From NCBI RefSeq assembly GCF_000026545.1, contig NC_011601.1: 64,000 bases of DNA. One strand, written 5' to 3'. This document shows, piece by piece, positions 31,552-52,389 of the stretch. Made by a program: the position numbers and the translations under genes. The notes beneath the pieces were generated by a model. It made no database searches. It was not told the origin of the DNA and saw only the letters and a program-made list of their open reading frames with translations. The first letter of the stretch is position 1. Each line of letters starts with the position of its first letter. This stretch comes from Escherichia coli O127:H6 str. E2348/69 (GTDB lineage Bacteria > Pseudomonadota > Gammaproteobacteria > Enterobacterales > Enterobacteriaceae).

Positions 31552-34475
<2,924 letters not shown>

Positions 34476-35025: not shown

Positions 35026-38000
35026 ATGTCACGTTATAAAACAGGTCATAAACAACCACGATTTCGTTATTCAGTTCTGGCCCGCTGCGTGGCGTGGACA
35101 AATATCTCTGTTCAGGTTCTTTTTCCACTCGCTGTCACCTTTACCCCAGTAATGGCGGCACGTGCGCAGCATGCGGTTCAGCCACGGTTGAGCATGGGAA
35201 ATACTACGGTAACTGCTGATAATAACGTGGAGAAAAATGTCGCGTCGTTTGCCGCAAATGCCGGGACATTTTTAAGCAGTCAGCCAGATAGCGATGCGAC
35301 ACGTAATTTTATTACCGGAATGGCCACCGCTAAAGCTAACCAGGAAATTCAGGAGTGGCTCGGGAAATATGGTACAGCGCGCGTCAAACTGAATGTCGAT
35401 AAAGATTTCTCGCTGAAGGACTCTTCGCTGGAAATGCTTTATCCGATTTATGATACACCGACAAATATGTTGTTCACTCAGGGGGCAATACATCGTACCG
35501 ACGATCGTACTCAGTCAAATATTGGTTTTGGCTGGCGTCATTTTTCAGAAAATGACTGGATGGCGGGGGTGAATACTTTTATCGATCATGATTTATCCCG
35601 TAGTCATACCCGCATTGGTGTTGGTGCGGAATACTGGCGTGATTATTTGAAACTGAGCGCCAATGGTTATATCCGGGCTTCTGGCTGGAAAAAATCGCCG
35701 GATGTTGAGGATTATCAGGAACGCCCGGCGAATGGCTGGGATATTCGTGCTGAGGGCTATTTACCTGCCTGGCCGCAGCTTGGCGCAAGCCTGATGTATG
35801 AACAGTATTATGGCGATGAAGTCGGGCTGTTTGGTAAAGATAAACGCCAGAAAGATCCACATGCGATTACCGCTGAAGTGAATTACACGCCAGTGCCTCT
35901 TCTGACCCTGAGTGCCGGGCATAAGCAGGGCAAGAGTGGTGAGAATGACACTCGCTTTGGCCTGGAAGTTAATTATCGGATTGGCGAACCTCTGGAAAAA
36001 CAACTCGATACAGACAGCATTCGCGAGCGTCGAATGTTGGCAGGCAGCCGCTATGACCTGGTTGAGCGTAATAACAATATCGTTCTTGAGTATCGCAAAT
36101 CTGAAGTGATCCGTATTGCTCTGCCTGAGCGTATTGAAGGCAAGGGCGGCCAGACGGTTTCCCTGGGGCTTGTGGTCAGCAAAGCAACTCACGGTCTGAA
36201 AAATGTGCAATGGGAAGCGCCGTCTTTGCTGGCCGCAGGCGGAAAAATTACGGGGCAGGGCAATCAGTGGCAAGTGACGCTCCCGGCTTATCAGGCAGGC
36301 AAAGACAATTATTATGCGATTTCAGCGATTGCCTACGATAACAAAGGCAATGCCTCGAAACGTGTGCAGACAGAAGTGGTTATTAGCGGAGCTGGTATGA
36401 GCGCCGATCGTACGGCGTTAACGCTTGACGGTCAGAGCCGTATTCAAATGCTTGCTAACGGTAATGAGCAAAAGCCGTTGGTGCTGTCTCTGCGCGACGC
36501 CGAGGGGCAGCCAGTCACGGGCATGAAAGATCAGATCAAGACTGAACTAACCTTCAAACCGGCTGGAAATATTGTGACTCGTACCCTGAAGGCCACTAAA
36601 TCACAGGCAAAGCCAACACTGGGTGAGTTCACCGAAACTGAAGCAGGGGTGTATCAGTCTGTCTTTACTACCGGAACGCAGTCAGGTGAGGCAACGATTA
36701 CTGTTAGCGTTGATGACATGAGCAAAACTGTCACTGCAGAACTGCGGGCCACGATGATGAATGTGGCAAACTCCACCCTGAGCGCTAACGAGCCGTCAGG
36801 TGATGTGGTTGCTGATGGTCGGCAAGCCTACACGCTGACACTGACAGCGGTGGACTCCGAGGGTAATCCGGTGACGGGAGAAGCCAGCCGCCTGCGACTT
36901 GTTCCGCAAGACACTAATGGTGTAACCGTTGGTGCCATTTCGGAAATAAAACCAGGGGGTTACAGCGCCACGGTTTCTTCGACCCGTGCCGGAAACGTTG
37001 TTGTGCGTGTCTTCAGCGAGCAGTATCAGCTGGGCACATTACAACAAACGCTGAAGTTTGTTGCCGGGCCGCTTGATGCAGCACATTCGTCCATCACCCT
37101 GAATCCTGATAAACCGGTGGTTGGCGGTACAGTTACGGCAATCTGGACGGCAAAAGATGCTAATGACAACCCTGTAACTGGCCTCAATCCGGATGCACCG
37201 TCATTATCGGGCGCAGCTGCTGCTGGTTCTACGGCATCAGGCTGGACGGATAATGGCGACGGGACCTGGACTGCGCAGATTTCTCTCGGCACTACGGCGG
37301 GTGAATTAGACGTTATGCCGAAGCTCAATGGGCAGGACGCGGCAGCAAATGCGGCAAAAGTAACCGTGGTGGCTGATGCATTATCTTCAAACCAGTCGAA
37401 AGTCTCTGTCGCAGAAGATCACGTAAAAGCCGGTGAAAGCACAACCGTAACGCTGGTGGCGAAAGATGCGCATGGCAACGCTATCAGTGGTCTTTCGTTG
37501 TCGGCAAGTTTGACGGGGACCGCCTCTGAAGGGGCGACCGTTTCCAGTTGGACCGAAAAAGGTGACGGTTCCTATGTTGCTACGTTAACTACAGGCGGAA
37601 AGACGGGCGAGCTTCGTGTCATGCCGCTCTTCAACGGCCAGCCTGCAGCCACCGAAGCCGCGCAGCTGACTGTTATTGCCGGAGAGATGTCATCAGCGAA
37701 CTCTACGCTTGTTGCGGACAATAAAACTCCAACGGTTAAAACGACGACGGAACTCACCTTCACCGTGAAGGATGCGTACGGGAATCCGGTCACCGGGCTG
37801 AAGCCAGATGCACCAGTGTTTAGTGGTGCCGCCAGCACGGGGAGTGAGCGTCCTTCAGCAGGAAACTGGACAGAGAAAGGTAATGGGGTCTACGTGTCGA
37901 CCTTAACGCTGGGATCTGCCGCGGGTCAGTTGTCTGTGATGCCGCGAGTGAACGGCCAAAATGCCGTTGCTCAGCCACTGGTGCTGAATGTTGCAGGTGA

Positions 38001-39276
38001 CGCATCTAAGGCTGAGATTCGTGATATGACAGTGAAGGTTAATAACCAACTGGCTAATGGACAGTCTGCTAACCAGATAACCCTGACCGTCGTGGACAGC
38101 TATGGTAACCCGTTGCAGGGGCAAGAAGTTACGCTGACTTTACCGCAGGGTGTGACCAGCAAGACGGGGAATACAGTAACAACCAATGCGGCAGGGAAAG
38201 TGGACATTGAGCTTATGTCAACGGTTGCAGGGGAACTTGAGATCGAGGCCTCGGTGAAAAACTCTCAGAAGACGGTCAAGGTGAAATTCAAGGCGGATTT
38301 CAGTACCGGTCAGGCGAGCCTGGAGGTAGACGCCGCTGCTCAAAAAGTGGCAAACGGCAAAGATGCCTTTACGCTGACGGCAACGGTTAAGGATCAATAC
38401 GGCAACCTTCTTCCTGGCGCTGTGGTCGTCTTTAATCTGCCTCGGGGCGTCAAACCGCTTGCAGACGGTAATATCATGGTGAACGCCGACAAGGAGGGTA
38501 AAGCGGAACTGAAAGTGGGTTCCGTGACTGCCGGAACCTATGAGATCACGGCGTCAGCAGGAAATGACCAGCCTTCGAATGCGCAGTCTGTAACGTTTGT
38601 GGCTGATAAGACTACGGCGACCATCTCCAGTATTGAGGTGATTGGCAACCGTGCAGTGGCGGACGGCAAAACCAAACAGACGTATAAAGTTACGGTGACT
38701 GATGCCAATAACAACCTGCTGAAAGATAGCGAAGTGACGCTGACTGCCAGCCCGGAAAATTTAGTTCTGACTCCCAATGGGACGGCGACAACGAATGAGC
38801 AAGGGCAGGCTATTTTCACCGCCACGACCACTGTCGCAGCGACATATACACTCACGGCGAAAGTGGAACAGGCCGACGGTCAGGAATCGACGAAAACTGC
38901 CGAATCTAAATTCGTCGCGGATGATAAAAACGCGGTGCTCGCTGCATCTCCAGAGCGTGTAGATTCTCTGGTGGCGGACGGGAAGACTACTGCAACACTG
39001 ACGGTTACTCTGATGTCGGGTGTCAACCCCGTAGGAGGAACCATGTGGGTCGACATTGAGGCTCCGGAAGGGGTGACAGAGGCGGATTATCAGTTCCTGC
39101 CGTCGAAAAATGACCATTTCGCGAGCGGGAAAATCACGCGTACATTTAGTACCAACAAGCCAGGTACATACACATTCACATTCAACTCTTTGACATATGG
39201 AGGGTATGAAATGAAACCAGTGACTGTGACAATTAACGCCGTTCCTGCAGATACTGAAGGCGCTGAGGAGAAATAA
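35026..39276 (+). CDS. eaeH: Intimin/invasin-like adhesin EaeH (FdeC), full length
   Basis: 1416 aa; N-terminal 'MSRYKTGHKQPRFRYSVLARCVAWTNISVQVLFPLAVTF', inverse-autotransporter-like region, then many Thr/Val-rich Ig-like repeats. Confidence 0.85.
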   Translation: MSRYKTGHKQPRFRYSVLARCVAWTNISVQVLFPLAVTFTPVMAARAQHAVQPRLSMGNTTVTADNNVEKNVASFAANAGTFLSSQPDSDATRNFITGMATAKANQEIQEWLGKYGTARVKLNVDKDFSLKDSSLEMLYPIYDTPTNMLFTQGAIHRTDDRTQSNIGFGWRHFSENDWMAGVNTFIDHDLSRSHTRIGVGAEYWRDYLKLSANGYIRASGWKKSPDVEDYQERPANGWDIRAEGYLPAWPQLGASLMYEQYYGDEVGLFGKDKRQKDPHAITAEVNYTPVPLLTLSAGHKQGKSGENDTRFGLEVNYRIGEPLEKQLDTDSIRERRMLAGSRYDLVERNNNIVLEYRKSEVIRIALPERIEGKGGQTVSLGLVVSKATHGLKNVQWEAPSLLAAGGKITGQGNQWQVTLPAYQAGKDNYYAISAIAYDNKGNASKRVQTEVVISGAGMSADRTALTLDGQSRIQMLANGNEQKPLVLSLRDAEGQPVTGMKDQIKTELTFKPAGNIVTRTLKATKSQAKPTLGEFTETEAGVYQSVFTTGTQSGEATITVSVDDMSKTVTAELRATMMNVANSTLSANEPSGDVVADGRQAYTLTLTAVDSEGNPVTGEASRLRLVPQDTNGVTVGAISEIKPGGYSATVSSTRAGNVVVRVFSEQYQLGTLQQTLKFVAGPLDAAHSSITLNPDKPVVGGTVTAIWTAKDANDNPVTGLNPDAPSLSGAAAAGSTASGWTDNGDGTWTAQISLGTTAGELDVMPKLNGQDAAANAAKVTVVADALSSNQSKVSVAEDHVKAGESTTVTLVAKDAHGNAISGLSLSASLTGTASEGATVSSWTEKGDGSYVATLTTGGKTGELRVMPLFNGQPAATEAAQLTVIAGEMSSANSTLVADNKTPTVKTTTELTFTVKDAYGNPVTGLKPDAPVFSGAASTGSERPSAGNWTEKGNGVYVSTLTLGSAAGQLSVMPRVNGQNAVAQPLVLNVAGDASKAEIRDMTVKVNNQLANGQSANQITLTVVDSYGNPLQGQEVTLTLPQGVTSKTGNTVTTNAAGKVDIELMSTVAGELEIEASVKNSQKTVKVKFKADFSTGQASLEVDAAAQKVANGKDAFTLTATVKDQYGNLLPGAVVVFNLPRGVKPLADGNIMVNADKEGKAELKVGSVTAGTYEITASAGNDQPSNAQSVTFVADKTTATISSIEVIGNRAVADGKTKQTYKVTVTDANNNLLKDSEVTLTASPENLVLTPNGTATTNEQGQAIFTATTTVAATYTLTAKVEQADGQESTKTAESKFVADDKNAVLAASPERVDSLVADGKTTATLTVTLMSGVNPVGGTMWVDIEAPEGVTEADYQFLPSKNDHFASGKITRTFSTNKPGTYTFTFNSLTYGGYEMKPVTVTINAVPADTEGAEEK

Positions 39277-39400
39277 AAACGACGATGTAATGAATAATAA
39301 TGGCGTTGACATGCGCAGCGCCATTATTTACTGAATACCTACCCTGGTACCGATTAGACGGTGGCAGGGTAGGGTAAATCTTATGTGATGGAGTTACAGG

Positions 39401-40258
39401 CTAAACCGGGCGAACGGGGATAAAAATTTCGCAAACAATGTTATTGCTATCAATTTCGACGAAGTTTTCATTGTAATAAAATCGCTCAATATCACTGCCG
39501 TTCACTCTGGCTAACCCCCTGGCAGGTAATTCCATCAGATAGAGGTTTCGCGCCCATTCAGGGTAGTGCTCCCACTCACCTTCATAGCGGAAAGAGGCAT
39601 ACAGTCCTCGGTTAATTGTCCACTCTTTCGGCATCTCTGAATCGGTTTGTTTGCATACCGTACCGGCAAAAGTTTCAACTGTGAGCAAATCGACCGATTT
39701 TGTTGATGGTTCGAACGTGGAGACGAAATAGATATCCGTCTTAAAATTCTTCATACATCTGACTAAATGATGACGTCGCAGTTTGACTTCTTCATCCGGT
39801 AATTTATTCGACACTTCAATATCATATTTAAATGAATTGCCAAAAATAGGTGTCTCAGGAAAGTTGACTAATCTACACTCCGTCTTTTGCTGTTGACGTA
39901 TTAAAAAAGAAGGGAAGATATTTGCGAGATCCCAATAATCACGGTGGCGGTATTCACGGGGAGAGCAGCCGAATAACTTTTTAAATTCGCGGCTGAATGA
40001 CTGCTGTGAATCAAAATGCAAAGAGAGTGCAATATCAAGCATAGATTTCGCGGAGAGCCGGACAAGAATGGCGGCACGACAAAGCCTGCGTTTGCGAATG
40101 TATTCTCCCAAAGGCACATGCATGAAATTTCGGAACAGAAGCTGGATGTTGCGTCTGCTGTAGCCAGATTTCTGTGCGATATCTTCGATTGAAATAGGGT
40201 GCTCAAGATTGCACTCAATCCACTCCAGGAGCTGCTGTAGAATCTTCTGCCTGATCAT
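39401..40258 (-). CDS. ykgA: AraC-family regulator with GyrI-like effector domain (YkgA-like)
   Basis: AraC HTH 'IEDIAQKSGYSRRNIQLLFRNF...' plus C-terminal GyrI-like region; start chosen at the Met preceded by GGAG (ORF track start is 40291). Confidence 0.7.
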   Translation of the reverse strand: MIRQKILQQLLEWIECNLEHPISIEDIAQKSGYSRRNIQLLFRNFMHVPLGEYIRKRRLCRAAILVRLSAKSMLDIALSLHFDSQQSFSREFKKLFGCSPREYRHRDYWDLANIFPSFLIRQQQKTECRLVNFPETPIFGNSFKYDIEVSNKLPDEEVKLRRHHLVRCMKNFKTDIYFVSTFEPSTKSVDLLTVETFAGTVCKQTDSEMPKEWTINRGLYASFRYEGEWEHYPEWARNLYLMELPARGLARVNGSDIERFYYNENFVEIDSNNIVCEIFIPVRPV

Positions 40259-40505
40259 CACATTCTCCGTTAATTCTTTGTCATATCGCACATTTTCGTT
40301 ATGTCCTGGGCCCTAAGTGTATCAAAAACAGCAAGGCGCAAGGCAAAAGCACTGATAGCGTCTGCTTCATTGCCCCAAAAATAGAGAGGTTTCAGTCCTA
40401 CATTATTAATGAATTTTTTGCATAAGTGATATCAAAATCCACATACTAATTCGAGGTTACGTTTTAACGTAGACTCATTGCTCATACCTAATGGAGGGAC
40501 TGACA

Positions 40506-41375
40506 GTGGAATTTTCCGTATTAAGTAACAATCTGAAAATGCCGATGATGGGATTTGGTGTTTTTCAGGTTACCGATAAAGACGTGTGCAAACAGTCAGT
40601 GTTGAATGCTATCCGCACGGGTTATCGACTCATCGACACTGCAGCGGTATACGGTAATGAAGATGCCGTCGGTGAAGCCGTTCGTGAAGCCATATCTGAA
40701 GGTTTATGTACCCGAGAAGAGTTATTTATAACGTCTAAATTGTGGGTGCAGGATATGTTGAATCAGGATATTGCAGCAGCAGGTATTGAAGCATCATTAA
40801 AAAAATCGGGGCTAGAATACTTCGATCTCTATTTATTGCACCAGGCCATGCGCGATTATTTCAGTGCGTGGCGTGCACTCGAAGATGCCTATGAAGAGGG
40901 CAAATTAAAAGCGATTGGGGTTTCCAATTTCTACCCTCATGTTCTGGCGAACTTTTGTGAAACGGTAAGAGTTAAACCGATGGTCAACCAGGTCGAGTTG
41001 CATCCCTATTTTGCCCAACCAGAGGCGCTGGCAACCATGAAGTATTATAATGTGCAGCCTGAAGCATGGGCTCCGTTAGGTGGTGGACGACATAAACCCT
41101 TTGAAAATAATCTGCTTCAGAGTATTGCAGATGCCCATCAAAAATCGATTTCTCAGGTCATTCTGCGTTGGAATATTCAACGGGGAGTGGTCGTTATTCC
41201 GAAATCAACACATCAACAGCGTATCGAAGAAAATTTTGCTATCTGGGATTTCTCACTGACAGAGAAAGAAATGGCGCAAATTAGTTCGCTTGATTTGGGT
41301 TATGTTGGGGAATCGGTAAAACATTTTAATCCTGAGTTTGTTCGTGGTTGTCTTGCTGTAAAAATACATGATTGA
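40506..41375 (+). CDS. Aldo/keto reductase, intact (ykgQ-like position)
   Basis: '[43 protein letters not shown]'; likely GTG start at 40506 behind GGAGGG (ORF track start 40491). Confidence 0.75.
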   Translation: MEFSVLSNNLKMPMMGFGVFQVTDKDVCKQSVLNAIRTGYRLIDTAAVYGNEDAVGEAVREAISEGLCTREELFITSKLWVQDMLNQDIAAAGIEASLKKSGLEYFDLYLLHQAMRDYFSAWRALEDAYEEGKLKAIGVSNFYPHVLANFCETVRVKPMVNQVELHPYFAQPEALATMKYYNVQPEAWAPLGGGRHKPFENNLLQSIADAHQKSISQVILRWNIQRGVVVIPKSTHQQRIEENFAIWDFSLTEKEMAQISSLDLGYVGESVKHFNPEFVRGCLAVKIHD

Positions 41376-41463
41376 TATTAATCACTTATTTTATCTGAGA
41401 TGACAAAAATTTTTTAACAGGGGAGTGATATTGATCTTCACTCTGTCATATCTCCGGTAATAT

Positions 41464-41501
41464 GGCGTCAGGCTTCATCAACAGAAAGGGGGCCTGACGC
41501 C
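41464..41501. terminator. Stem-loop between the convergent AKR gene and rclC
   Basis: GGCGTCAGGC ... GCCTGACGCC 10-bp arms; right arm followed by TGAAAAAG. Confidence 0.4.
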
Positions 41502-41534
41502 TGAAAAAGTGAACAACAGACAGTGTTCGGATTA

Positions 41535-42128
41535 TCAATATTCAGTTTTTAACGTTGAACTGGATTCATTACTGCGTTGTTTAAGAATATCCCGCGCCGA
41601 ATCTGCCATTATCATGACAGCACCTGCCAGCATCAGAGTATCTTTCAATACCAGACGACCAGCACCGGATAAATAAGGGAAACCATGATGAGCGTCACCC
41701 AATGCGGGTACCCATGCCTCCGGAGTGGTGATTAAAAATGAGAGTGTTACCAGCGGCGTGGTAAATGCCATCAGCCCACCCAATAAACCTAACCAGCGAT
41801 TGACAGGATTAGCCAAAACCAGCAGAGCAATAATCACCTCCACGACGCCAAGACCGTTGGAAAAACCATAGGTATTATTAGCCGTTTGCCATGCTCTTGC
41901 TTCTGGTTTGTATTCGCCTTCGTGAGTCAGATACTGTTTATAGTCTTCCGGGTGTTCATAAAAGAACGACATTAGTGGACTGTTTGCGACGAATGGTGTA
42001 ATGCTGTCTGCCTCGTAAGGGACAAACTTTAATAACCCAATCCACATAAAAACAATCGCAATGCTCAGACGAATCAATGTCAGGCCAATTTTATCTCCCC
42101 GACTTAACAGGTGCAGGTATCTTTCCAT
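41535..42128 (-). CDS. rclC: Reactive chlorine resistance inner membrane protein RclC (DoxX-like)
   Basis: 'MERYLHLLSRGDKIGLTLIRLSIAIVFMWIGLLKF'; 197 aa from the SD-preceded Met. Confidence 0.85.
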   Translation of the reverse strand: MERYLHLLSRGDKIGLTLIRLSIAIVFMWIGLLKFVPYEADSITPFVANSPLMSFFYEHPEDYKQYLTHEGEYKPEARAWQTANNTYGFSNGLGVVEVIIALLVLANPVNRWLGLLGGLMAFTTPLVTLSFLITTPEAWVPALGDAHHGFPYLSGAGRLVLKDTLMLAGAVMIMADSARDILKQRSNESSSTLKTEY

Positions 42129-42139
42129 TGTAAACATCC

Positions 42140-42376
42140 TTATTTATACAATACTGCTGTTGCGGTTGAATTATTATCAATTCGCATCGATGTAACTTTC
42201 CAGGATGAAGCATTATATTTTCTGGCCATATCAGCAATGGCATTCTCAAGAACTGTCGGTGATGCTGATACTGATGAGACGCTGATATGTTTCAGAATTA
42301 TTTTATCATCTGCATTGGTGGAAAATGCCATAACGCCAGATAATAGTGTTGCAAATAAAACAGATTTTTTAAACAT
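42140..42376 (-). CDS. rclB: Reactive chlorine resistance periplasmic protein RclB
   Basis: 'MFKKSVLFATLLSGVMAFSTNA' signal peptide; 78 aa. Confidence 0.8.
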   Translation of the reverse strand: MFKKSVLFATLLSGVMAFSTNADDKIILKHISVSSVSASPTVLENAIADMARKYNASSWKVTSMRIDNNSTATAVLYK

Positions 42377-42484
42377 ATAAAATACCATCAATGAAGTGAT
42401 TAAGAAGTTATAAAGTAACAGGGAATTAATAAGATTCTTTTCTCTGAGACGCCAGAATATTTGTTCTGGCGTCTGATTTTGAGT

Positions 42485-43810
42485 TTATTTGACTAATGAA
42501 AATAGATCATTGAGTGATTCGCTCATCGACGGATGAGTAAATATCTGATCGCGTAATATGCTATAAGGCAGCCCGGCATCCATCACCATTTTCACTATAT
42601 TGATCATCTCGTGGGAGTCAACACACAGCAGTGATGCCCCTAATATACGTTGGGTTTTATTATCAACAATCGCTTTTAATACCCCACGAGTATCATTCAT
42701 CACTCTGGCACGCGGAATTGCAGCTACAGGCAATGTCACCACCTGAATATCAGCACCACTCTCTCTGGCCTGTTCTTCTGTCATACCAACCCTGGACAGT
42801 GGCGGTGTCATGAATACGGAATAAGGCACATTTTTCCGATCATCAGTACTACGTCTGCCTTCTCCCAGCAATTCATCACGCACAATGCGGTAATCATCCA
42901 GTGAAATGTAAGTAAATTGCAGCCCGCCGGTAACATCTCCCATCGCCCAAATATTGTTTGCGGTGGTATGTAATTGCTTGTCAACGACAATTGCCCCGCG
43001 CTCGTTTACTGCGATACCTGCATTTTCTGGATGTAACGAAGCGGTAGCCGGTTGACGACCGGAAGCTATTAACAGTGCATCCACCGCCAGTTGGGCGTGC
43101 TCGCTATGCACTTGCACTTGATTTTCATGGTGACTGATTCGCTCCACATGGGCATTGAGGATTATATCGACGCCCTGATCGCGTAAAATCGTCGCGATAT
43201 TATCAGCAATATCCCGATCTTCCCGAGGCAAAAACAGCGAAGCTGCCTCTAAAATGGTTACTTTGCTGCCAAAATTAGCGAACATAGAGGCGAACTCAAC
43301 GCCAATATATCCGCCGCCCAAAATACCTAAATGCCCAGGCAATTCTTTTAGATTAAGTAATCCGGTGCTGTCATATACACCAGGCGTGGTGGTAATTCCA
43401 GGAATTGGCGGAACCACGGCTTGTGCACCGGTATTAATAAAAATTTTCTCGCCATGAATCTCCAGATTTCTCCCAGGCCGATGAACACGCAGGCTATGAT
43501 TATTGATAAACTCCGCCAGGCCGTCGATCACGTCGATATTGGGCATATCCGCAAGATTATGAAAATTCTTATTACGTAAAAAATTAACCACTTCATTTTT
43601 ACGCTGTATGGCACGGACAAAATCTGTGTGCTGCTGTGCGTCATGAACCAATGTTTTGGTTGGGATACAGCCGATATTAATACAGGTCCCGCCATACATT
43701 GCATTTGATTGTTCGATGAGAGCCACACGCCAACCTGCTTTTGCCAGCGTGACGGCTAATGTTTTTCCAGCCTTGCCAAAACCAATAATAACTGCCTGAT
43801 ATTTATTCAT
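42485..43810 (-). CDS. rclA: Reactive chlorine resistance flavoprotein oxidoreductase RclA
   Basis: 'MNKYQAVIIGFGKAGKTLAVTLAKAGWRVALIEQ' FAD site and CxxxxC ('GGTCINIGCIPTK') disulfide reductase motif; 441 aa. Confidence 0.9.
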   Translation of the reverse strand: MNKYQAVIIGFGKAGKTLAVTLAKAGWRVALIEQSNAMYGGTCINIGCIPTKTLVHDAQQHTDFVRAIQRKNEVVNFLRNKNFHNLADMPNIDVIDGLAEFINNHSLRVHRPGRNLEIHGEKIFINTGAQAVVPPIPGITTTPGVYDSTGLLNLKELPGHLGILGGGYIGVEFASMFANFGSKVTILEAASLFLPREDRDIADNIATILRDQGVDIILNAHVERISHHENQVQVHSEHAQLAVDALLIASGRQPATASLHPENAGIAVNERGAIVVDKQLHTTANNIWAMGDVTGGLQFTYISLDDYRIVRDELLGEGRRSTDDRKNVPYSVFMTPPLSRVGMTEEQARESGADIQVVTLPVAAIPRARVMNDTRGVLKAIVDNKTQRILGASLLCVDSHEMINIVKMVMDAGLPYSILRDQIFTHPSMSESLNDLFSLVK

Positions 43811-44036
43811 GATGATTTCCTGTCGAAACGCGTTCATTTGACATCATGACTATAGACGCAAAAGAGCAAATAACATTTCTTCACAACGCTTGATATTTTG
43901 TCTTATCGTCTGGTATTTTCTTTTTCTTAATCAGAATCACAAAACAAAAATCATGATTAACTATTTGATGGTATTAGATTAATTATTGACTAAGATTGTT
44001 GGTGTTTGTAATCAAAAAACCACTCAGGAGTCTGAT

Positions 44037-44891
44037 ATGGATGCTCTTAGCCGTTTGTTGATGCTTAACGCTCCACAAGGAACGATCGATAAGAATTGCG
44101 TGTTAGGAAGTGACTGGCAACTTCCACATGGTGCCGGGGAATTGTCGGTTATTCGTTGGCATGCGTTAACGCAAGGAGCGGCGAAGCTGGAAATGCCGAC
44201 GGGAGAGATTTTTACATTACGCCCGGGAAATGTGGTCCTGCTACCACAAAATTCAGCTCATCGCCTGAGTCATGTCGATAATGAATCGACCTGTATTGTC
44301 TGTGGCACTCTTCGACTGCAACATTCGGCGCGTTATTTTTTAACGTCTTTGCCGGAAACGCTGTTTGTAGCACCAGTGAACCATAGCGTGGAATATAACT
44401 GGCTGAGGGAGGCGATCCCGTTTTTACAACAGGAATCCAGATCGGCAATGCCGGGAGTGGATGCTCTGTGTAGCCAGATCTGCGCTACATTCTTTACCCT
44501 CGCGGTGCGTGAGTGGATTGCACAGGTTAATACAGAGAAAAACATTCTCAGTTTGCTTCTGCATCCACGTCTTGGTGCGGTAATACAGCAAATGATGGAA
44601 ATGCCTGGACACGCCTGGACCGTCGAATCGCTGGCCAGCATCGCCCACATGTCCCGGGCAAGTTTTGCCCAGCTTTTCCGTGATGTTTCCGGAACCACGC
44701 CGCTGGCTGTATTAACAAAGTTGCGTCTACAAATAGCGGCCCAGATGTTTTCCCGGGAAATGCTCCCTGTTGTGGTGATCGCTGAGTCAGTAGGCTATGC
44801 CAGCGAATCATCTTTTCACAAGGCGTTTGTCCGCGAGTTTGGTTGTACTCCGGGAGAATATCGGGAAAGGGTCAGACAGCTTGCACCCTGA
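44037..44891 (+). CDS. rclR: Reactive-chlorine-responsive AraC-family activator RclR
   Basis: 'MDALSRLLMLNAPQGTIDKNCVLGSDW...' with C-terminal AraC HTH; divergent from rclABC; 284 aa. Confidence 0.85.
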   Translation: MDALSRLLMLNAPQGTIDKNCVLGSDWQLPHGAGELSVIRWHALTQGAAKLEMPTGEIFTLRPGNVVLLPQNSAHRLSHVDNESTCIVCGTLRLQHSARYFLTSLPETLFVAPVNHSVEYNWLREAIPFLQQESRSAMPGVDALCSQICATFFTLAVREWIAQVNTEKNILSLLLHPRLGAVIQQMMEMPGHAWTVESLASIAHMSRASFAQLFRDVSGTTPLAVLTKLRLQIAAQMFSREMLPVVVIAESVGYASESSFHKAFVREFGCTPGEYRERVRQLAP

Positions 44892-45418
44892 ATAAAACCG
44901 CCAGAAATCAGGGCAAAGATAATCCGCATTCCGGGAGTTGTGAGCCTTTCAACTATTTCTATTTCCAACGGTGGTTTTGGGCTTTATATATTTTTTTTGA
45001 TGGACTCTAGCTCAGTTTTTAAATAAAAATGCAAACTAAATTGCTTCAATTAAATAAAATCCCGACTATTACTTGATACGTGATTATTGTCGGTGATTTT
45101 TTTTGTGCACCATCAGTGTATATCTCAATAACCCCTGAATAAGTAGCTCTGAATAGGTATAAGGGGTGTAGCCTTTTTAAATGGATTTCTTATGCCAAAA
45201 ATGATCGTCGATTTCCCTATAAAATGTGAGCGATGCCGAAAGAAATAAAATTAGTTATTGCATTTGAAGTTTAGATGAAAGATTATCATTTGTCATACAA
45301 ATGAGAGGTGGTATGTTGCTAGCCAATTAAAAAAGAACGCCATATTTATTGATGATTGATCCCCCGGAAGGGGGGAACCATCGGGCATAAATGGGCATGA
45401 AGTAATGGAGTATTAGTT

Positions 45419-46138
45419 GTGAATGTCAATTTCTTTGTCACCTGTATTGGTGACGCCCTGAAATCAAGAATGGCACGAGACTCCGTGCTGCTACTGGAAA
45501 AACTCGGCTGTCGCGTAAATTTCCCGGAGAAACAGGGATGCTGCGGTCAGCCTGCGATCAATAGTGGTTATACCAAAGAAGCGATTCCAGGGATGAAAAA
45601 TCTGATCGCCGCACTGGAGGATAACGACGATCCCATTATTTCACCGGCTGGCTCTTGCACCTATGCCGTAAAAAGTTACCCGACGTATCTGGCGGATGAA
45701 CCTGAATGGGCATCACGTGCCGAAAAGGTTGCCGCGCGTATGCAGGATCTCACCTCTTTTATTGTTAATACATTAGGGGTAGTCGATGTAGGTGCCAGTT
45801 TGCAAGGGAGAGCGGTGTATCACCCATCTTGTAGCCTGGCCCGTAAGCTGGGGGTGAAGGACGAACCTCTTACGCTGCTGAAAAATGTGCGTGGACTGGA
45901 GCTGTTGACCTTTGCTGAACAGGATACCTGCTGCGGATTTGGCGGCACGTTCTCGGTCAAAATGGCCGAAATATCCGGCGAGATGGTGAAAGAAAAGGTT
46001 GCGCACCTGATGGAAGTCCGCCCTGAGTATTTAATTGGTGCTGACGTGAGTTGCCTGCTGAACATCAGTGGACGATTACAACGGGAAGGGCAGAAAGTCA
46101 AAGTGATGCATATTGCTGAAGTGCTGATGAGCCGCTGA
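45419..46138 (+). CDS. ykgE: Cysteine-rich (Fe-S)-binding protein YkgE (LutA-like)
   Basis: 239 aa, 'MNVNFFVTCIGDALKSRMARDSV...' CCG-domain pattern; first of the ykgEFG operon (GTG start). Confidence 0.85.
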   Translation: MNVNFFVTCIGDALKSRMARDSVLLLEKLGCRVNFPEKQGCCGQPAINSGYTKEAIPGMKNLIAALEDNDDPIISPAGSCTYAVKSYPTYLADEPEWASRAEKVAARMQDLTSFIVNTLGVVDVGASLQGRAVYHPSCSLARKLGVKDEPLTLLKNVRGLELLTFAEQDTCCGFGGTFSVKMAEISGEMVKEKVAHLMEVRPEYLIGADVSCLLNISGRLQREGQKVKVMHIAEVLMSR

Positions 46139-46148
46139 GGATATAAAG

Positions 46149-47576
46149 ATGTCGATCAAAACCAGTAATACAGATTTTAAGACACGCATCCGTCAGCAAA
46201 TTGAAGATCCGATCATGCGTAAAGCGGTGGCAAACGCGCAGCAGCGTATTGGGGCAAATCGGCAAAAAATGGTCGATGAATTGGGGCACTGGGAGGAGTG
46301 GCGCGATCGGGCCGCCCAGATACGTGATCATGTTCTGAGTAATCTCGACGCTTATCTGTACCAGCTCTCAGAAAAAGTGACACAAAACGGCGGTCACGTC
46401 TATTTTGCAAAAACCAAAGAAGACGCCACCCGCTACATTTTACAGGTTGCCCAACGCAAAAATGCCCGGAAGGTAGTGAAATCTAAATCGATGGTGACCG
46501 AAGAGATTGGTGTCAATCATGTGTTGCAGGATGCCGGGATTCAGGTGATTGAAACCGATCTGGGTGAATACATTCTCCAGCTGGATCAAGATCCGCCCTC
46601 TCATGTTGTGGTCCCGGCAATTCATAAAGATCGCCATCAGATCCGTCGAGTGCTACACGAACGTCTGGGCTATGAGGGGCCGGAAACGCCTGAAGCGATG
46701 ACCTTATTCATTCGGCAAAAAATCCGCGAAGATTTCCTCAGTGTTGAAATAGGTATTACCGGCTGTAATTTCGCGGTGGCAGAGACCGGTTCGGTATGCC
46801 TGGTGACCAATGAAGGTAATGCGCGAATGTGTACCACGCTGCCTAAAACGCATATTGCAGTGATGGGAATGGAGCGTATTGCTCCCACGTTTGCAGAGGT
46901 AGATGTATTGATCACCATGCTGGCGCGCAGTGCCGTTGGTGCACGTTTGACGGGATACAACACCTGGCTGACAGGACCGCGCGAAGCGGGGCACGTTGAT
47001 GGTCCTGAAGAGTTTCATCTGGTTATTGTCGATAACGGGCGTTCTGAGGTGCTGGCCTCTGAATTTCGGGATGTGCTGCGCTGTATTCGTTGCGGGGCTT
47101 GTATGAATACTTGTCCGGCATATCGCCATATTGGCGGTCATGGATATGGCTCTATTTATCCAGGGCCAATTGGTGCGGTGATTTCCCCGTTACTTGGCGG
47201 CTATAAAGATTTTAAAGATTTACCCTACGCCTGCTCTTTATGCACCGCTTGTGACAGCGTGTGTCCGGTGCGTATTCCGCTGTCAAAACTGATTTTGCGT
47301 CATCGTCGGGTGATGGCTGAAAAAGGGATCACCGCAAAAGCAGAGCAACGGGCGATAAAAATGTTCGCTTATGCCAATAGTCATCCAGGATTGTGGAAAG
47401 TCGGGATGATGGCTGGTGCTCATGCGGCAAGCTGGTTTATCAATGGCGGCAAAACACCACTCAAATTTGGCGCGATTAGCGACTGGATGGAAGCACGCGA
47501 TCTTCCTGAAGCTGACGGAGAGAGTTTCCGTAGTTGGTTTAAGAAACATCAGGCGCAGGAGAAAAAGAATGGATAA
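46149..47576 (+). CDS. ykgF: 4Fe-4S ferredoxin-type protein YkgF (LutB-like)
   Basis: 475 aa; two CxxCxxCxxxCP motifs ('CIRCGACMNTCPAY', 'CSLCTACDSVCPV'). Confidence 0.85.
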   Translation: MSIKTSNTDFKTRIRQQIEDPIMRKAVANAQQRIGANRQKMVDELGHWEEWRDRAAQIRDHVLSNLDAYLYQLSEKVTQNGGHVYFAKTKEDATRYILQVAQRKNARKVVKSKSMVTEEIGVNHVLQDAGIQVIETDLGEYILQLDQDPPSHVVVPAIHKDRHQIRRVLHERLGYEGPETPEAMTLFIRQKIREDFLSVEIGITGCNFAVAETGSVCLVTNEGNARMCTTLPKTHIAVMGMERIAPTFAEVDVLITMLARSAVGARLTGYNTWLTGPREAGHVDGPEEFHLVIVDNGRSEVLASEFRDVLRCIRCGACMNTCPAYRHIGGHGYGSIYPGPIGAVISPLLGGYKDFKDLPYACSLCTACDSVCPVRIPLSKLILRHRRVMAEKGITAKAEQRAIKMFAYANSHPGLWKVGMMAGAHAASWFINGGKTPLKFGAISDWMEARDLPEADGESFRSWFKKHQAQEKKNG

Positions 47577-48264
47577 TCGGAGCGAATTTTTGAATAACGT
47601 TGCTCAGGCACTGGGTCGCCCGCTGCGACTTGAACCGCAAGCAGAAGATGCGCCGCTTAACAACTATGCTAACGAGCGGCTTACCCAACTTACCCAACAG
47701 CAGCGCTGTGACGCGTTTATCCAGTTTGCCAGCGATGTTATGTTGACGCGCTGTGAACTGACCAGCGAGGCGAAGGCGGCAGAAGCTGCAATACGTCTGT
47801 GTAAAGAGCTGGGAGATCAGTCGGTCGTGATTAGTGGTGACACGAGGCTGGAGGAATTGGGGATTAGCGAACGTTTGCAGCAGGAATGCAATGCCGTTGT
47901 TTGGGATCCGGCGAAAGGTATTGAGAACATATCACAAGCAGAGCAGGCTAAAGTGGGCGTCGTATATGCTGAATATGGTTTAACCGAATCGGGAGGCGTG
48001 GTTCTTTTTTCCGCCGCCGGGCGCGGGCGTTCATTGAGCCTGCTCCCGGAATCTTCTCTTTTTATCCTGCGTAAAAGCACAATCCTGCCGCGTGTAGCGC
48101 AACTCGCAGAAAAATTGCATCAGAAAGCGCAGGCCGGTGAACGAATGCCGTCATGTATTAACATCATCAGTGGTCCCAGTTCAACGGCGGACATTGAGCT
48201 TATCAAAGTCGTCGGGGTTCATGGTCCGGTGAAAGCGGTGTATCTGATTATTGAGGATTGCTGA
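47569..48264 (+). CDS. ykgG: YkgG (LutC-like) protein
   Basis: Start at 'MDNRSEFLNNVAQALGRP', overlapping the ykgF stop by 8 nt; 231 aa. Confidence 0.8.
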   Translation: MDNRSEFLNNVAQALGRPLRLEPQAEDAPLNNYANERLTQLTQQQRCDAFIQFASDVMLTRCELTSEAKAAEAAIRLCKELGDQSVVISGDTRLEELGISERLQQECNAVVWDPAKGIENISQAEQAKVGVVYAEYGLTESGGVVLFSAAGRGRSLSLLPESSLFILRKSTILPRVAQLAEKLHQKAQAGERMPSCINIISGPSSTADIELIKVVGVHGPVKAVYLIIEDC

Positions 48265-48506
48265 GAGAGATATGTAGTCTGGACATAAACCTGAAGGCGG
48301 TATACGAGGTTGTGAATAGCGTTAAGGACAACCTGACTTAACCCCGTTCCGTCATGGTTATGCTGCTCTTCTGTAAATATCCTGACATTAATAATGCCAG
48401 GATATTTACAGTGAAAAAGACAGGAATCCATTCCTGAAGACGGGCTCCCTTCCCGGTCATTGTCACTATAGTTTTATACAGGCACTCTCTGTCAGAATGC
48501 TGTTTA

Positions 48507-49007
48507 TTACTGCCCAGAGTTTTGTTGGTATTCATCTACCATTTTTTTGACAAGGCAAAACATTACAGAAATCACAATACTTAGAAAAAATCCCAGAGCC
48601 AGGCAAATGGCAGCAGGGTATTTATTTTTTATTTCTGGTGAGCTTATAGTGACACAGCCATCACCGTTCGGATACAATGACCAGTTCCTGGTCAGGTATA
48701 TCATTTTTGTATAAAGCTCACTGTTAATTGCTGAAGGCGTTTGTATCTCATCGAGAACTTGCCTGCCATTATGGTATTCTGACGCATACCATTTGATGGT
48801 AGACGCCTGCACGCGAGATATTTCCGCTTCAGCAGTTGGTAAATCTCTCTTATCTCCTGACCATTCCAGCTTTATTTCTCTGTTATACAGAAACAACAGC
48901 ACCATTGCCATACAGATAGCTATAATAAAAAGGATAATACGAATCTTTTTCTTCAGATAAAATAAAATCTCAATCAGATCGATATCCTGTTTTATTTGTT
49001 CATTCAT
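48507..49007 (-). CDS. ykgH: Predicted membrane protein (YkgH-like position)
   Basis: 166 aa ORF with an N-terminal TM helix ('IRIILFIIAICMAMVLLFLY'); conserved position between ykgG and betA. Confidence 0.55.
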   Translation of the reverse strand: MNEQIKQDIDLIEILFYLKKKIRIILFIIAICMAMVLLFLYNREIKLEWSGDKRDLPTAEAEISRVQASTIKWYASEYHNGRQVLDEIQTPSAINSELYTKMIYLTRNWSLYPNGDGCVTISSPEIKNKYPAAICLALGFFLSIVISVMFCLVKKMVDEYQQNSGQ

Positions 49008-49219
49008 AATATATCCAGAAAATGAAATCTGTCGCAGATAATATTGTATTAATAGTCTGTATCAGGAATGTTCGGGTTAAATATCAACGAAAAACCAGAA
49101 TCATGAATACTGGATATGAAGCATGAGAGTTACCTCAGTGTTTTATATAAGGATTCGGTCCTCATAGTAGAACGGTAACTCTCAATCTGATCGGTTCCTG
49201 AGTCAGTTCACATCACGAC

Positions 49220-50890
49220 TCATTTTTTCGCTCTCACCGGCATCCCATTTGCCACAAAATATCCCGCCGTGCTCCTCGGCAACGCTTCCTTCCCACGAAT
49301 CATATCCGCTATTTTCTCGCCAATCATAATCGTCGTGGCGTTCAAATTGCCGGTGATAATTTGCGGCATAATTGACGCATCCACCACGCGCAGGCCTTCC
49401 AGCCCGTGTACGCGGCCTTCGCCGTCAACCACAGCCATCTCGTCATAACCCATTTTGCAGGTACCGCACGGATGAAACGCGGTTTCGGCGTGGTTACGCA
49501 CGAACTCATCGAGCTGCTCATCCGTCTGGCATTCGACACCAGGGCTGATTTCGCGGCCACGGTATTGATCCAGCGCGGGTTGATGCATGATCTCCCGGGT
49601 GGTGCGAATTGCGTCGCGGAACTCCTGCCAGTCCTGCTCGTGCGACATGTAGTTAAACAGAATCGCCGGATGCTGGTGCGGGTCGCGGGATTTAATCCGC
49701 ACATGCCCACGGCTTGGCGAGCGCATCGATCCGACATGGCATTGGAAGCCGTGCTCTTTCACTGCGTTCGAGCCGTTATAGTTAATCGCCACTGGCAGGA
49801 AATGGTACTGAATATTCGGCCACGCAAATTCCTCACGGCTGCGAATAAATCCGCCTGCTTCAAAGTGGTTGCTGGCACCAACGCCGGTGCCGCCAAACAG
49901 CCACTCCGCACCGATTCTCGGCTGATTCCACCACTGCAGGGCAGGGTAGAGGGAAACCGGTTCTTTGCACTCGTATTGCAGATACATCTCCAGGTGATCC
50001 TGAAGATTTTCGCCGACGCCGGGTAATTCATGCACCAGCGGAATATCAAACTCCGCCAGCAGTTCAGCGTTGCCGACGCCGGAGCGTTGCAGGATCTGCG
50101 GTGAAGCAATCGCGCCTGCACATAACAGCACTTCTTTATTCGCCGCCGCGCGGGTCGGAATGGTGCTGTCGCCTTCCAGCCACTCGACGCCCACCGCGCG
50201 TTTGCCGTCAAAAATGATGTGATCGGTCATGGCGTGAGTACGAATGGTCAGGTTAGGGCGCGATTTGGCCTGATCGAGATAGCCACGCGCGGTGCTGGCG
50301 CGACGGCCATGCGGCGTGACGGTGCGATCCATCGGGCCAAAACCTTCCTGCTGATAGCCGTTGAGATCGTCCGTGCGCGGGTAGCCTGCCTGCATGCCCG
50401 CTTCAATCATCGCTTCAAACAGCGGATTGACGCCGGGTTTGGAGGTGATGACGCTCACCGGGCCATCGCCACCGTGGTAATCGTTCTCGCCCACATCGCG
50501 AGTCTCGGCCTTGCGGTAGTAGGGCAGGCAGTCGAGATAACTCCAGTTCTCCAGACCAGGTTCTTGTGCCCAGTTATCGAGATCCAGCGCATTGCCACGG
50601 ATGTAGCACATACCGTTGATCAGCGATGAACCGCCCAGACCTTTGCCGCGTCCGCACTCCATGCGGCGGTTGTTCATAAACGGTTCGGGTTCCGTCTCAT
50701 AGGCCCAGTTATAGCGTTTGCCCTGTAGCGGGAACGCCAGCGCGGCGGGCATCTGGGTGCGGAAGTCAAAGCGATAGTCCGGGCCGCCTGCTTCAAGCAG
50801 CAGCACGGTTGTGTTCGGATCTTCAGTCAGACGGGTAGCGAGAACGTTGCCGGCTGAGCCGGCACCAATAATGATGTAGTCAAATTGCAA
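49220..50890 (-). CDS. betA: Choline dehydrogenase (GMC oxidoreductase)
   Basis: '[35 protein letters not shown]' FAD-binding N-terminus; apparent TTG start behind a GGAGG SD (ORF track start 50935). Confidence 0.9.
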
Positions 50891-50903
50891 ATAAACCTCC
50901 TGG

Positions 50904-52376
50904 TTAAAATATGGACTGGAATTTAGCCATCTCAACCTGGATGGACTTCACCTGGGTGTAACTCTGGAGCGTCATCACGCCGTTCTCGCGACCAATGCCG
51001 GAGTGTTTGTAGCCGCCAACGGGCATCTCTGCCGGGGATTCGCCCCAGGTGTTGATCCAGCAAATACCCGCTTCCAGCTGATGAATGACGCGATGCGCGC
51101 GGTTCAGGTCTGCCGTCACGATACCCGCCGCCAGACCGTAGTCGGTATCGTTAGCGCGGCGAATGACTTCGTCTTCCGACTCGTAGGTCAGAATGGACAT
51201 CACCGGCCCGAAAATCTCTTCGCGCACAATGGTCATATCGTCGCTGCAATCGGTGAACACGGTCGGTGCAACCCATGCGCCGTTATCGAAGCTATCCCCC
51301 TTCAGTACATCGCCGCCGCACAGTACGCGCGCGCCTTCCTCTATGCCTTTGGCGATATAGCGCAGCACGTTATCGCGATGCGGGAAGCTGACCAGCGGGC
51401 CGAAGTTAGTTTGCGGATCGAAAACGTCGCCCGCGCGAATGCGCTCAACGCGCGCCAGAACCTTTTGTTCAAATGCGGCTTTGCATTTCGTCGGAACGAA
51501 GACGCGAGTGCCGTTGGTACACACCTGACCGGAGCTGAAGAAATTCGCCATCATGGCGATATCGGCGGCGAGATCGAGATCCGCATCGTCGAAAACGATC
51601 AGCGGTGATTTACCGCCCAGCTCCATGGTCACTTCTTTCAGGGAAGAGGCTGCCGAGTTAGCCATCACTTTTTTGCCGCTGGCGACGCCGCCGGTAAATG
51701 ACACTTTGGCAATGCCCGGATGATCGGTCAGATATTGCCCGGTCTCCGCGCCCACGCCCGGCAACACGTTAAATACACCGTCCGGCAGGCCCGCTTCGCT
51801 GTAAATTTCAGCCAGCTTTAACGCGGTAAGCGGGGTGACTTCGCTCGGTTTGAAGATCATCGCGTTACCCGCCGCCAGCGCGGGGGCGGATTTCCACAAA
51901 GCAATCTGGATCGGGTAGTTCCATGCGCCAATCCCCGCCACCACACCCAGCGGTTCGCGGCGGGTATAAACAAATGACGTCTCACGCAACGGGATCTGGC
52001 AGCCTTCCAGCGCCGGGATCAGCCCGGCATAGTACTCCAGCACGTCCGCACCGGTAACGATATCGACGGTTGAGGTTTCCGAATATGCTTTTCCGGTGTC
52101 AAGGGTTTCCAGTTTTGCGAGTTCGTCATTGCGTTCACGCAGAATATCAACGGCCCGACGCAGAATACGCGAGCGCTCCATAGCGGTCATCGCCGCCCAG
52201 ATTTTTTGCCCTTGTTGGGCACTCTTCACGGCGCGATCGACATCCTCACGCCCGGCGGCCTGCACGGTCGCCAGCACGTTACCGTTGGCCGGGTTAATGG
52301 TCTCGAAGGTGCGACCGCTGGTGGCGGAGGTATAACCACCATGTATATAAAGCTGCTGTTCTGCCATTCGGGACAT
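50904..52376 (-). CDS. betB: Betaine aldehyde dehydrogenase
   Basis: '[32 protein letters not shown]'; ALDH family; 490 aa. Confidence 0.95.
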
Positions 52377-52389
52377 CACGTCTCCTCGG

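Follow-up and report, generated by a model that had tools for sequence, protein, structure and literature searches.

The fdeC-to-ykgG Segment of Escherichia coli E2348/69: Very Probably an Undecayed Mosaic of Independent Transcription Units

Gene Content of the Segment

We analysed a stretch of 64,000 nucleotides from Escherichia coli O127:H6 strain E2348/69 (contig NC_011601.1; called the window below) and, within it, positions 39401-48264, where the regulator gene ykgA, an aldo-keto reductase (AKR) gene, rclRABC and ykgEFG lie side by side next to the adhesin gene fdeC. An earlier note on this DNA had described a contiguous oxidative/electrophile-stress neighbourhood. In our reading the region is very probably the undecayed E. 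coli form of the fdeC-to-ykgG segment, a mosaic of at least four independent, mostly characterised, adjacent transcription units.

The 8,864 bases of 39401-48264 match the E. coli E2348/69 chromosome NZ_CP059840.2 at 100%, and at least 80% of this query is present in 4,941 of 5,426 complete E. coli genomes. RefSeq annotates nine genes here, all of them intact, and Pfam and NCBIfam profile searches agree with all gene names in the region. The gene identities and end coordinates given earlier were exact, position 39401 being the ykgA stop codon. The nine genes and their upstream neighbours are as follows.

28152-34460: upstream six-gene block, with an OYE-type flavin reductase, an alpha/beta hydrolase, two LysR regulators, AKR1 (329 aa) and AKR2 (283 aa)
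35026-39276, plus strand: fdeC (eaeH), an intact inverse-autotransporter adhesin, tail to tail with ykgA; Pfam IAT_beta, Invasin_D3, Big_1
39401-40258, minus strand: ykgA, 285 aa, Rob-like, with an N-terminal double helix-turn-helix (HTH; AraC/XylS) and a C-terminal GyrI-like effector domain; Pfam HTH_18, HTH_AraC, GyrI-like
40506-41375, plus strand: aldo-keto reductase (AKR3, the counterpart of K-12 ykgQ), 289 aa, GTG start 8 nt past GGAGGG; Pfam Aldo_ket_red
41535-42128, minus strand: rclC, DUF417 inner-membrane protein; NCBIfam RclC
42140-42376, minus strand: rclB, small periplasmic protein of the YdgH/BhsA family; NCBIfam RclB
42485-43810, minus strand: rclA, flavoprotein disulfide reductase (hypothiocyanous acid, HOSCN, reductase), active-site Cys43 and Cys48; NCBIfam RclA
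44037-44891, plus strand: rclR, redox-sensing AraC-family activator of rclABC; NCBIfam RclR
45419-46138, plus strand: ykgE, CCG domain (PF02754)
46149-47576, plus strand: ykgF, LUD, Fer4 and LutB_C domains; TIGR00273
47569-48264, plus strand: ykgG, LUD domain, reading frame overlapping ykgF

From ykgA to rclA the GC content is 40-45%; E. coli is typically at about 50%. Scans of 39200-45500 found no excess of sigma-70 promoters (14 matches, 15.5 in shuffles) or of terminators (6 matches, 5.9 in shuffles), and an Rfam search of 39-48 kb returned no match.

Comparison with K-12 and Frequency among E. coli Genomes

The locus was compared with K-12 MG1655 by blastn. The insertion sequence IS3 of MG1655 takes the place of window positions 35902-39597, so that fdeC is without its 3' 3.4 kb and ykgA without its last 197 bp. 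The reductase gene of MG1655 is cut to a 129-bp annotated fragment (ykgQ) by two deletions, which together remove 685 of its 870 bp.

40522-41106: first ykgQ deletion segment of K-12, 585 bp, edges +/-2 nt, from blastn against MG1655
41147-41155 and 41247-41255: 9-bp direct repeats GATTTCTCA, of which K-12 retains a single copy with 100 bp lost, read from the sequence

The second deletion spans exactly 100 bp between the GATTTCTCA copies, and a loss flanked by 9-bp direct repeats points to a slippage-type event. Further upstream, the 6.2-kb block at 28235-34474 (OYE reductase, hydrolase, two LysR genes and two AKR genes) is replaced by 8 bp in MG1655. Both K-12 fragments, ykgA and ykgQ, carry a pseudogene annotation. 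The statement in the earlier note that ykgQ is a fragment in K-12, its description of the E2348/69 gene as intact and the contrast it drew between IS3 in K-12 and no IS3 between eaeH and ykgA here were all borne out: the E2348/69 reductase has no lesion and is full length against its orthologues, and the arrangement in K-12 is not intact, so the observation stands. This difference between E2348/69 and K-12 is already known and documented.

The reductase gene is full length in 2,936 of the 5,426 complete E. coli genomes, which places E2348/69 in the common undecayed state. Most of the roughly 2,100 other matching genomes hold just the two-piece remnant of the K-12 type, and the 585-bp segment 40522-41106 is deleted in K-12 and in about 39% of E. 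coli genomes. The junction of the K-12-type 6.2-kb deletion was found in 2,831 genomes, and the K-12 IS3/ykgA junction is rare (312 genomes, about 6%) and probably confined mostly to K-12 derivatives. The K-12 state very probably represents lineage-specific decay, through one IS3-associated deletion and two older, commonly polymorphic deletions (the reductase and the 6.2-kb block).

The finding in large part re-derives a known difference between K-12 and the wild type, with rclRABC and ykgEFG already characterised, and as such it matters little. It does mark K-12 as a poor model for this segment, being without the three AKRs, the OYE reductase, the Rob paralogue and FdeC, which about 40-55% of E. 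coli genomes keep. Two further observations concern the same genes. The OYE reductase, intact in E2348/69, is frameshifted in the uropathogenic strain CFT073 (CFT073 locus 13836-14980). In addition, NZ_CM135829.1, an assembly labelled DH5alpha (4.83 Mb), has the reductase gene at full length, which does not fit K-12 ancestry, so the label may be wrong.

Gene Order in Relatives

In relatives, the modules of the segment were found apart from one another. The gene order of E. whittamii and Escherichia sp. E1V33 is AKR1-AKR2-fdeC-ykgA-reductase-ykgEFG, and in both a spacer of about 320 bp, rich in AT, stands in for the 3.85-kb rcl module; tblastn with the rcl genes found none of them in these two loci.

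41370-45220: rcl module as an indel unit, with blastn break points at 41369, where homology ends, and 45221, where it resumes

The order in E. albertii is rclCBA-rclR-lactate permease-ykgEFG-LysR-AKR1, with type III effector genes (NleG, OspG-like) flanking rclC, and no ykgA, AKR3 or fdeC lies within 8 kb of that locus. In Salmonella enterica and Citrobacter freundii, rclR/rclA adjoin the cus copper-efflux genes or their remnants. Orthologues of the reductase gene occupy yet other settings: in Klebsiella it closes a LysR-hydrolase-MFS cluster, in Vibrio natriegens it stands alone and in S. salamae it lies near ycjG/mpaA-like genes (MR_MLE, Peptidase_M14). Orthologues of ykgA at least 64% identical are never beside the reductase gene outside the E. 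coli / E. whittamii group.

Comparison with relatives shows these modules to be gained or lost independently. The earlier claim of a contiguous stress neighbourhood holds for rclRABC, which is a true oxidant defence, and fails for the segment as one coherent unit. The proximity of the units would reflect a variable, AT-rich stretch of chromosome and not a dedicated stress island.

A horizontally acquired island at 28-48 kb was considered and dropped: no mobility genes are annotated in it, it has no tRNA border, and its parts occur apart in relatives. Between ecpR (about 25.7 kb) and yahG (about 62 kb), the block included, the annotation shows neither an integrase nor an insertion sequence, and the only tRNA found by a search of the window is at 13401-13476, away from the block. 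Low GC (40-45%) is the sole island-like trait of the stretch.

Three side observations belong to the same comparison. Citrobacter has rclA and rclR without rclB or rclC, and the position of rclR/rclA beside the cus genes is of interest given that RclA is reported to have Cu(II) reductase activity. Escherichia sp. E1V33 is without the whole ykgH-betABIT segment (window 48274-55201), of which E. whittamii has left a 76%-identical trace near 49120-49281 alone, homology otherwise resuming near 55114. By these alignments the bet operon appears to be a further separable module of this stretch of chromosome.

The rcl and ykgEFG Modules

The four Rcl proteins score above their NCBIfam cut-offs (RclR 553.5 against 400, RclA 865.3 against 740, RclB 149.1 against 100 and RclC 339.4 against 275). 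RclR has cysteines at 21, 86, 89, 145, 149 and 270, among which Cys21 and Cys89 reportedly are the redox-sensing cysteines (Parker et al. 2013), and the CxxxxC motif of RclA is formed by Cys43 and Cys48. The rclR/rclABC system is an experimentally established defence against hypochlorous acid (HOCl) and HOSCN (PMC12096828, PMC9335216). Oxidised RclR activates rclABC (PMC12096828, PMC9600549), RclA is an efficient HOSCN reductase (PMC9335216), and RclB and RclC add protection by a mechanism described as unknown (PMC12096828, PMC9335216, PMC9600549). With rclR and rclABC divergent, the module of E2348/69 would follow the same steps, from activation of rclABC by oxidised RclR to HOSCN reduction by RclA and added protection from RclB/RclC. 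A perfect hairpin with a 12-bp stem and no U-run lies at 42447-42474, directly past the rclA stop codon and ahead of rclB; such a structure might be a cause of the reported lower rclB/rclC mRNA relative to rclA.

The ykgEFG genes had been taken for an Fe-S stress operon, and this did not hold. YkgF scores 776 bits with TIGR00273 (cut-off 444.8), and the three subunits of the LutABC/LldEFG type, a CCG protein, a LutB/LldF Fe-S protein and a LUD protein, are all encoded in one operon. As the counterpart of LutABC/LldEFG, YkgEFG is a respiratory L-lactate dehydrogenase, and the mutant has a fitness defect on L-lactate with nitrate (PMC9701030). The module is thus catabolic and not a stress system; it oxidises L-lactate to pyruvate and passes the electrons to the quinone pool. 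The lactate permease gene between rclR and ykgE in E. albertii supports this lactate role.

Response of the Segment to HOCl

The earlier note had proposed transcriptomics under HOCl as a check. Published RNA-seq data exist for CFT073, which has the same gene order as E2348/69 in this region, after 15 min at 2.25 mM HOCl (PMC9600549, Table S1). The sign in that table is inverted, as judged from rclABC, ibpB and bhsA, and the induction threshold of the study is a log2 value of 1.5, which 757 genes (about 14%) pass. The CFT073 tags are c0410 for the hydrolase, c0411-c0412 for the two LysR genes, c0413-c0414 for AKR1 and AKR2, c0415 for fdeC, c0416 for ykgA, c0417 for the reductase, c0418-c0421 for rclCBA and rclR, and c0422-c0424 for ykgEFG, with unnamed tags assigned by position between named anchors. 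The log2 inductions in that table are as follows.

rclC: 7.40
rclB: 6.72
rclA: 6.12
rclR: 3.19
ykgE: 3.19
ykgF: 2.22
ykgG: 2.32
ykgA: 2.04
c0410 (hydrolase): 2.09
fdeC: 1.41
Reductase (c0417): 1.33
c0412 (LysR): 1.35
c0409 (OYE fragment): 1.08

Several points weigh against the mosaic reading. All 13 genes of c0409-c0424 that are present in the table move upward, and 9 of the 16 genes and 5 of the 11 transcription units lie above the threshold (P ~1e-4 and 0.012, respectively, against the 14% background). There may hence be some shared response to HOCl across the region, whether regulatory, through relief from H-NS or by read-through. Three AKR genes, the OYE reductase and RclA within 16 kb also form a non-random concentration of reductases. 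The three AKR genes lie within 8.8 kb; about 0.002 such triples would be expected by chance, assuming the roughly 12 AKR genes of an E. coli genome. Finally, a functional link may lie in the substrates of the reductases and in the ligand and targets of YkgA.

The nominally significant enrichment of HOCl inductions and the clustering of reductase genes would favour an integrated oxidative/electrophile-stress island, in which the reductases, ykgA, rcl and ykgEFG were co-selected and are co-regulated to detoxify oxidant-derived electrophiles. We consider such an island very unlikely. Its modules separate freely in relatives and ykgEFG has its demonstrated catabolic role (PMC9701030). HOCl at 2.25 mM alters more than 1,400 CFT073 genes, with the reductase and fdeC below the threshold of the study (PMC9600549). 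No shared operator was found, and a scan placed no marbox in the ykgA/reductase spacer. The identical fold change of rclR and ykgE (3.19) and the absence of any terminator-like site in a scan of the 527-bp spacer between them (44892-45418) fit simple read-through; together they suggest that transcription runs on from rclR into ykgEFG.

The HOCl part of the proposed check thus gave a mixed outcome, upward across c0409-c0424 and below 1.5 for the reductase and fdeC. The regional response is real but mostly modest and strong only for rcl, and the reductase is not a notable HOCl-induced gene. What can be retained of the roughly 20 kb described earlier as enriched in reductases and stress regulators is a local abundance of NAD(P)H oxidoreductases and regulators; a stress role of the reductase and ykgA is not supported. 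The reading of the segment as a mosaic is retained.

The Aldo-Keto Reductase and Its Divergent Neighbour ykgA

The reductase matches a database cluster of 2,681 sequences at 100% identity and is colinear with 289-aa orthologues of 80-86% identity from Escherichia to Vibrio, which form a tight orthologue group of their own. It matches the AKR superfamily profile PF00248 at 147.8 bits (cut-off 24), 187 solved AKR sequences match it, and the catalytic tetrad is present, with D44 and Y49 (DTAAVY), K78 (SKLW) and H112 (LLHQ) aligned with 1vp5 and 4mhb. Its nearest solved relatives are, in order, Thermotoga TM1009 (1vp5, E = 3e-84), the putative AKR 4mhb, B. subtilis YtbE (3b3d), a trypanosomatid-type prostaglandin F synthase and B. 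subtilis YvgN (3d3f). DkgA itself was ruled out, the score with NF008598 being 233.9 bits against an equivalog cut-off of 425. To judge from family membership, the protein would be a monocistronic NAD(P)H-dependent AKR of the DkgA/YvgN/YtbE type, most likely reducing reactive aldehydes or dicarbonyls. Recent tandem duplication of the three AKR genes was likewise ruled out by identities of 45% and 24-26%, which mark them as old paralogues.

The reductases of Vibrio, Marinomonas and Marinobacterium are 79-82% identical to that of E2348/69. Among orders, such identity is unusually high for an enzyme that is not essential, which suggests horizontal spread or very strong constraint. The gene is flanked by two features.

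40259-40505: divergent ykgA/reductase intergenic region, 247 bp, with a block of about 50 nt nearly invariant in an alignment of E. coli and E. whittamii
41464-41501: hairpin with a 10-bp stem, GGCGTCAGGC ... GCCTGACGCC, between the convergent reductase and rclC genes, read from the sequence

The hairpin is probably a bidirectional transcript end for the reductase and rclC. In E. whittamii (about 6750-6900 of its locus) the ykgA/reductase spacer has an extra insertion of about 146 bp relative to E. coli.

YkgA matches HTH_18 at 69.7 bits and HTH_AraC at 59.2 bits, as for a double helix-turn-helix DNA-binding domain, and PF06445 (GyrI-like) at 48 bits (cut-off 26), as for the C-terminal effector domain of the Rob type. 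The protein aligns end to end with the Rob structures 7vwy and 1d5y and over residues 2-106 with the SoxS structure. It is not the Rob equivalog: NF012228 gave 191.9 bits against 380 and NF011701 gave 169 bits against 426, with the RobA model matched along its whole length. Taken together, ykgA would encode a Rob paralogue. The gene is discussed in Martin, Gillette & Rosner 2000, to go by the citation in PMC2064960, where the targets of YkgA are called unknown.

One arrangement that would tie the two genes together is a sensor-effector pair, in which the GyrI-like domain of YkgA would bind an electrophile or aldehyde and YkgA would activate the reductase gene. The divergent layout, the strongly conserved block of about 50 nt in the 247-bp spacer, the binding of small molecules by GyrI-like domains (Pfam description) and the modest HOCl induction of both genes in CFT073 are consistent with it. 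However, only E. coli and the Escherichia species nearest to it show the pairing. Klebsiella, Vibrio and S. salamae have a reductase conserved at 80-86% but no ykgA next to it, and ykgA orthologues occur without the reductase in Salmonella and at two further loci (L009 and L005, below). Moreover, the reductase is gone from about 39% of E. coli genomes, and those of them that were sampled still have a gene of the ykgA HTH type annotated. On this evidence a sensor-effector pair is unlikely.

A marbox in the spacer had been considered as a sign of a reductase under YkgA/Mar control and was dropped: a scan of 40259-40505 allowing at most 2 mismatches gave no match, none of the 20 hits in the window (18.3 expected) falling there. 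The supplement of PMC12052159 lists a predicted marbox, TGTATCAAAAATAGC, at the ykgA core promoter. Of the uncharacterised proteins in the segment, only the reductase, which is very highly conserved, and YkgA are worth an experiment.

Linkage of ykgA to fdeC

Comparative data suggest that YkgA goes with fdeC and not with the reductases. A scan of genome contigs gave 5 ykgA loci, and a metagenome scan gave 80, nearly all E. coli-like, with no further ykgA lineage except two copies of the L005 type; an earlier search pattern had matched nothing. Six lineages have a YkgA at least 64% identical, and in each of them ykgA and an fdeC orthologue lie tail to tail. The six are E. coli, E. whittamii, Escherichia sp. 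E1V33, the divergent strain E69, which carries an E. coli label (L005), a chromosome of Salmonella enterica (L008) and one further genome (L009), and in the last three the outer flanks of fdeC-ykgA are unrelated to the window. Homologues of YkgA at most 49% identical are never beside an inverse autotransporter gene; distant YkgA-like proteins (42-49% identity), whose gene neighbourhoods are unrelated, were taken to be other paralogues, not orthologues. By gene order, fdeC and ykgA appear to behave as a two-gene unit, and beyond E. coli no other neighbour of ykgA is conserved.

The region upstream of fdeC contains the following features.

34793-34812, plus strand: marbox-like site CTTGCACAAAAAGCTAAATT, one mismatch to the marbox consensus
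34831-34836, plus strand: TATAAT, 18 nt past the marbox-like site
34843-35025, plus strand: predicted fdeC leader, about 183 nt, with three conserved hairpins

Both CTTGCACAAAAAGCTAAATT and TATAAT are invariant in the fdeC upstream regions of five divergent lineages, in surroundings that have diverged. With its forward orientation and a centre near -40 from a predicted start near 34843, the box fits the class II geometry defined for MarA/SoxS/Rob promoters (PMC12052159). The genome screen of that study left out boxes more than 200 bp from the start codon, and since the fdeC box lies 233 bp upstream, this may be why it is absent from the published list. A scan of the whole window gave 20 marbox matches against 18.3 expected, equal to chance, and a literature search found no paper tying the regulation of eaeH/fdeC to MarA or SoxS.

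Trp42 and Arg46 of MarA read the GCAC half of the marbox in the MarA-DNA structure, and in YkgA both residues (MarA numbering, helix 3) are replaced. The recognition helix 3 of the MarA/SoxS/Rob/RamA group is SKW(H/Y)LQR(M/L)F, whereas that of YkgA is SRRNIQLLF, invariant across YkgA orthologues. The box may therefore belong to MarA, SoxS or Rob rather than to YkgA.

It is conceivable that ykgA belongs functionally with fdeC, as a module of adhesin and regulator in which YkgA and/or MarA, SoxS and Rob activate fdeC from the class II marbox-like site. We regard this as a possibility to be taken seriously, if a less probable one. It would account for the tail-to-tail linkage in all six lineages despite the differing outer flanks of L005, L008 and L009, for the invariance of the 19-nt box and of TATAAT amid diverging DNA at a position and in an orientation that fit class II, and for the rise of both ykgA and fdeC in HOCl-treated CFT073. 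Against it, convergent orientation is atypical for a regulator and its target, the SRRNIQLLF helix is without the GCAC-reading residues even though the box contains a canonical GCAC, the number of marbox matches across the window is at chance level, and the more distant homologues are not beside an inverse autotransporter. The case draws on six lineages, with binding and activation predicted from sequence.

The predicted fdeC leader is more conserved than the coding sequence and occurs in one copy per genome, always at fdeC. RNAalifold gave 54 pairs, 10 of them with compensatory change, and three hairpins with such changes; the single-sequence fold has -64.6 kcal/mol (z = -4.5). Three terminator-like sites were found against 0.3 expected, and an Rfam search of the leader matched no family. 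A U-run at 34954-34961 pairs with the Shine-Dalgarno region at 35010-35017 (UUUUCUGA with UCAGGAAA); all 8 pairs of this helix are invariant in the 6 lineages, so that there is conserved pairing and no covariation. The predicted probability that the Shine-Dalgarno region is unpaired is 0.13 at 37 C. In E2348/69 it increases only slightly between 25 C (0.07) and 42 C (0.18), in other lineages it is variable, and partition-function folding over 25-50 C gave a gradual, small opening only. According to the account of Easton 2014 given in PMC11143625, FdeC is expressed only at 39 C or above in enterohaemorrhagic E. coli and at 42 C in avian pathogenic E. coli. A literature search found no paper naming fdeC or eaeH with an RNA thermometer.

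Combined, these observations raise a more specific proposal, which we hold tentatively and find somewhat doubtful as a whole. In it, ykgA would be the resident regulator of fdeC and not part of a stress cluster, and the two genes would travel as a module through Escherichia, Salmonella and one further genome. The fdeC promoter would be of class II and activator-dependent, with YkgA and/or MarA, SoxS or Rob reading the invariant marbox-like site. The leader would act as a conserved cis-regulatory RNA not described before, in which a terminator-like hairpin is combined with a U-run that hides the ribosome-binding site. If true, the leader might explain why FdeC is reported to be silent below about 39 C, and expression of the adhesin would be tied to a Rob-type regulator that senses small molecules or stress and has been lost from K-12. 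Of all the items here, only the linkage of fdeC to ykgA, the invariant box and the structured leader might repay experiment.

Other Features of the Window

Beyond ykgG, ykgH of E2348/69 (48507-49007, minus strand) carries an in-frame 168-bp deletion relative to K-12, with 4 bp of junction microhomology; its product has 166 aa against 222 aa in K-12 and CFT073 and is a hypothetical protein in RefSeq. Upstream of the block, ykgL (window about 26550-26775) is frameshifted by annotation in E2348/69 and CFT073 alike. Other RNA features are tRNA-Thr(CGT) at 13401-13476, an Rfam IS009 match (190 bits) at 18050-18250 and two naRNA4/REP-type matches at 63457-63619.

Comparison with Known Systems

The closest counterpart of the segment as a whole is the K-12 MG1655 locus eaeH'-IS3-ykgA'-ykgQ'-rclCBA-rclR-ykgEFG, which has the same backbone, order and orientation at 95-98% nucleotide identity over the shared parts, with rclRABC and ykgEFG intact as in E2348/69. 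YkgA has the identical two-domain architecture of Rob over residues 5-283. Its DNA-binding domain is about 45-50% identical to those of Rob and SoxS, in an alignment read by eye, and the helix-6 motif SQQ-F-R-F of the MarA/SoxS/Rob/RamA group is conserved. The reductase has the Aldo_ket_red fold and catalytic tetrad in common with E. coli DkgA, B. subtilis YvgN/YtbE and TM1009, and residues 5-284 align with TM1009 (1vp5), over half of them identical by eye.

The rcl module is the same system as the RclR-RclABC defence against HOCl/HOSCN, with the divergent rclR/rclA layout, nothing material different and 97-98% DNA identity to K-12. The ykgEFG operon has the same three genes, for CCG, LutB/LldF and LUD subunits, as LutABC of B. 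subtilis and LldEFG of Shewanella. It differs in E. coli in having no adjacent lactate permease or regulator, whereas E. albertii has the permease gene between rclR and ykgE.

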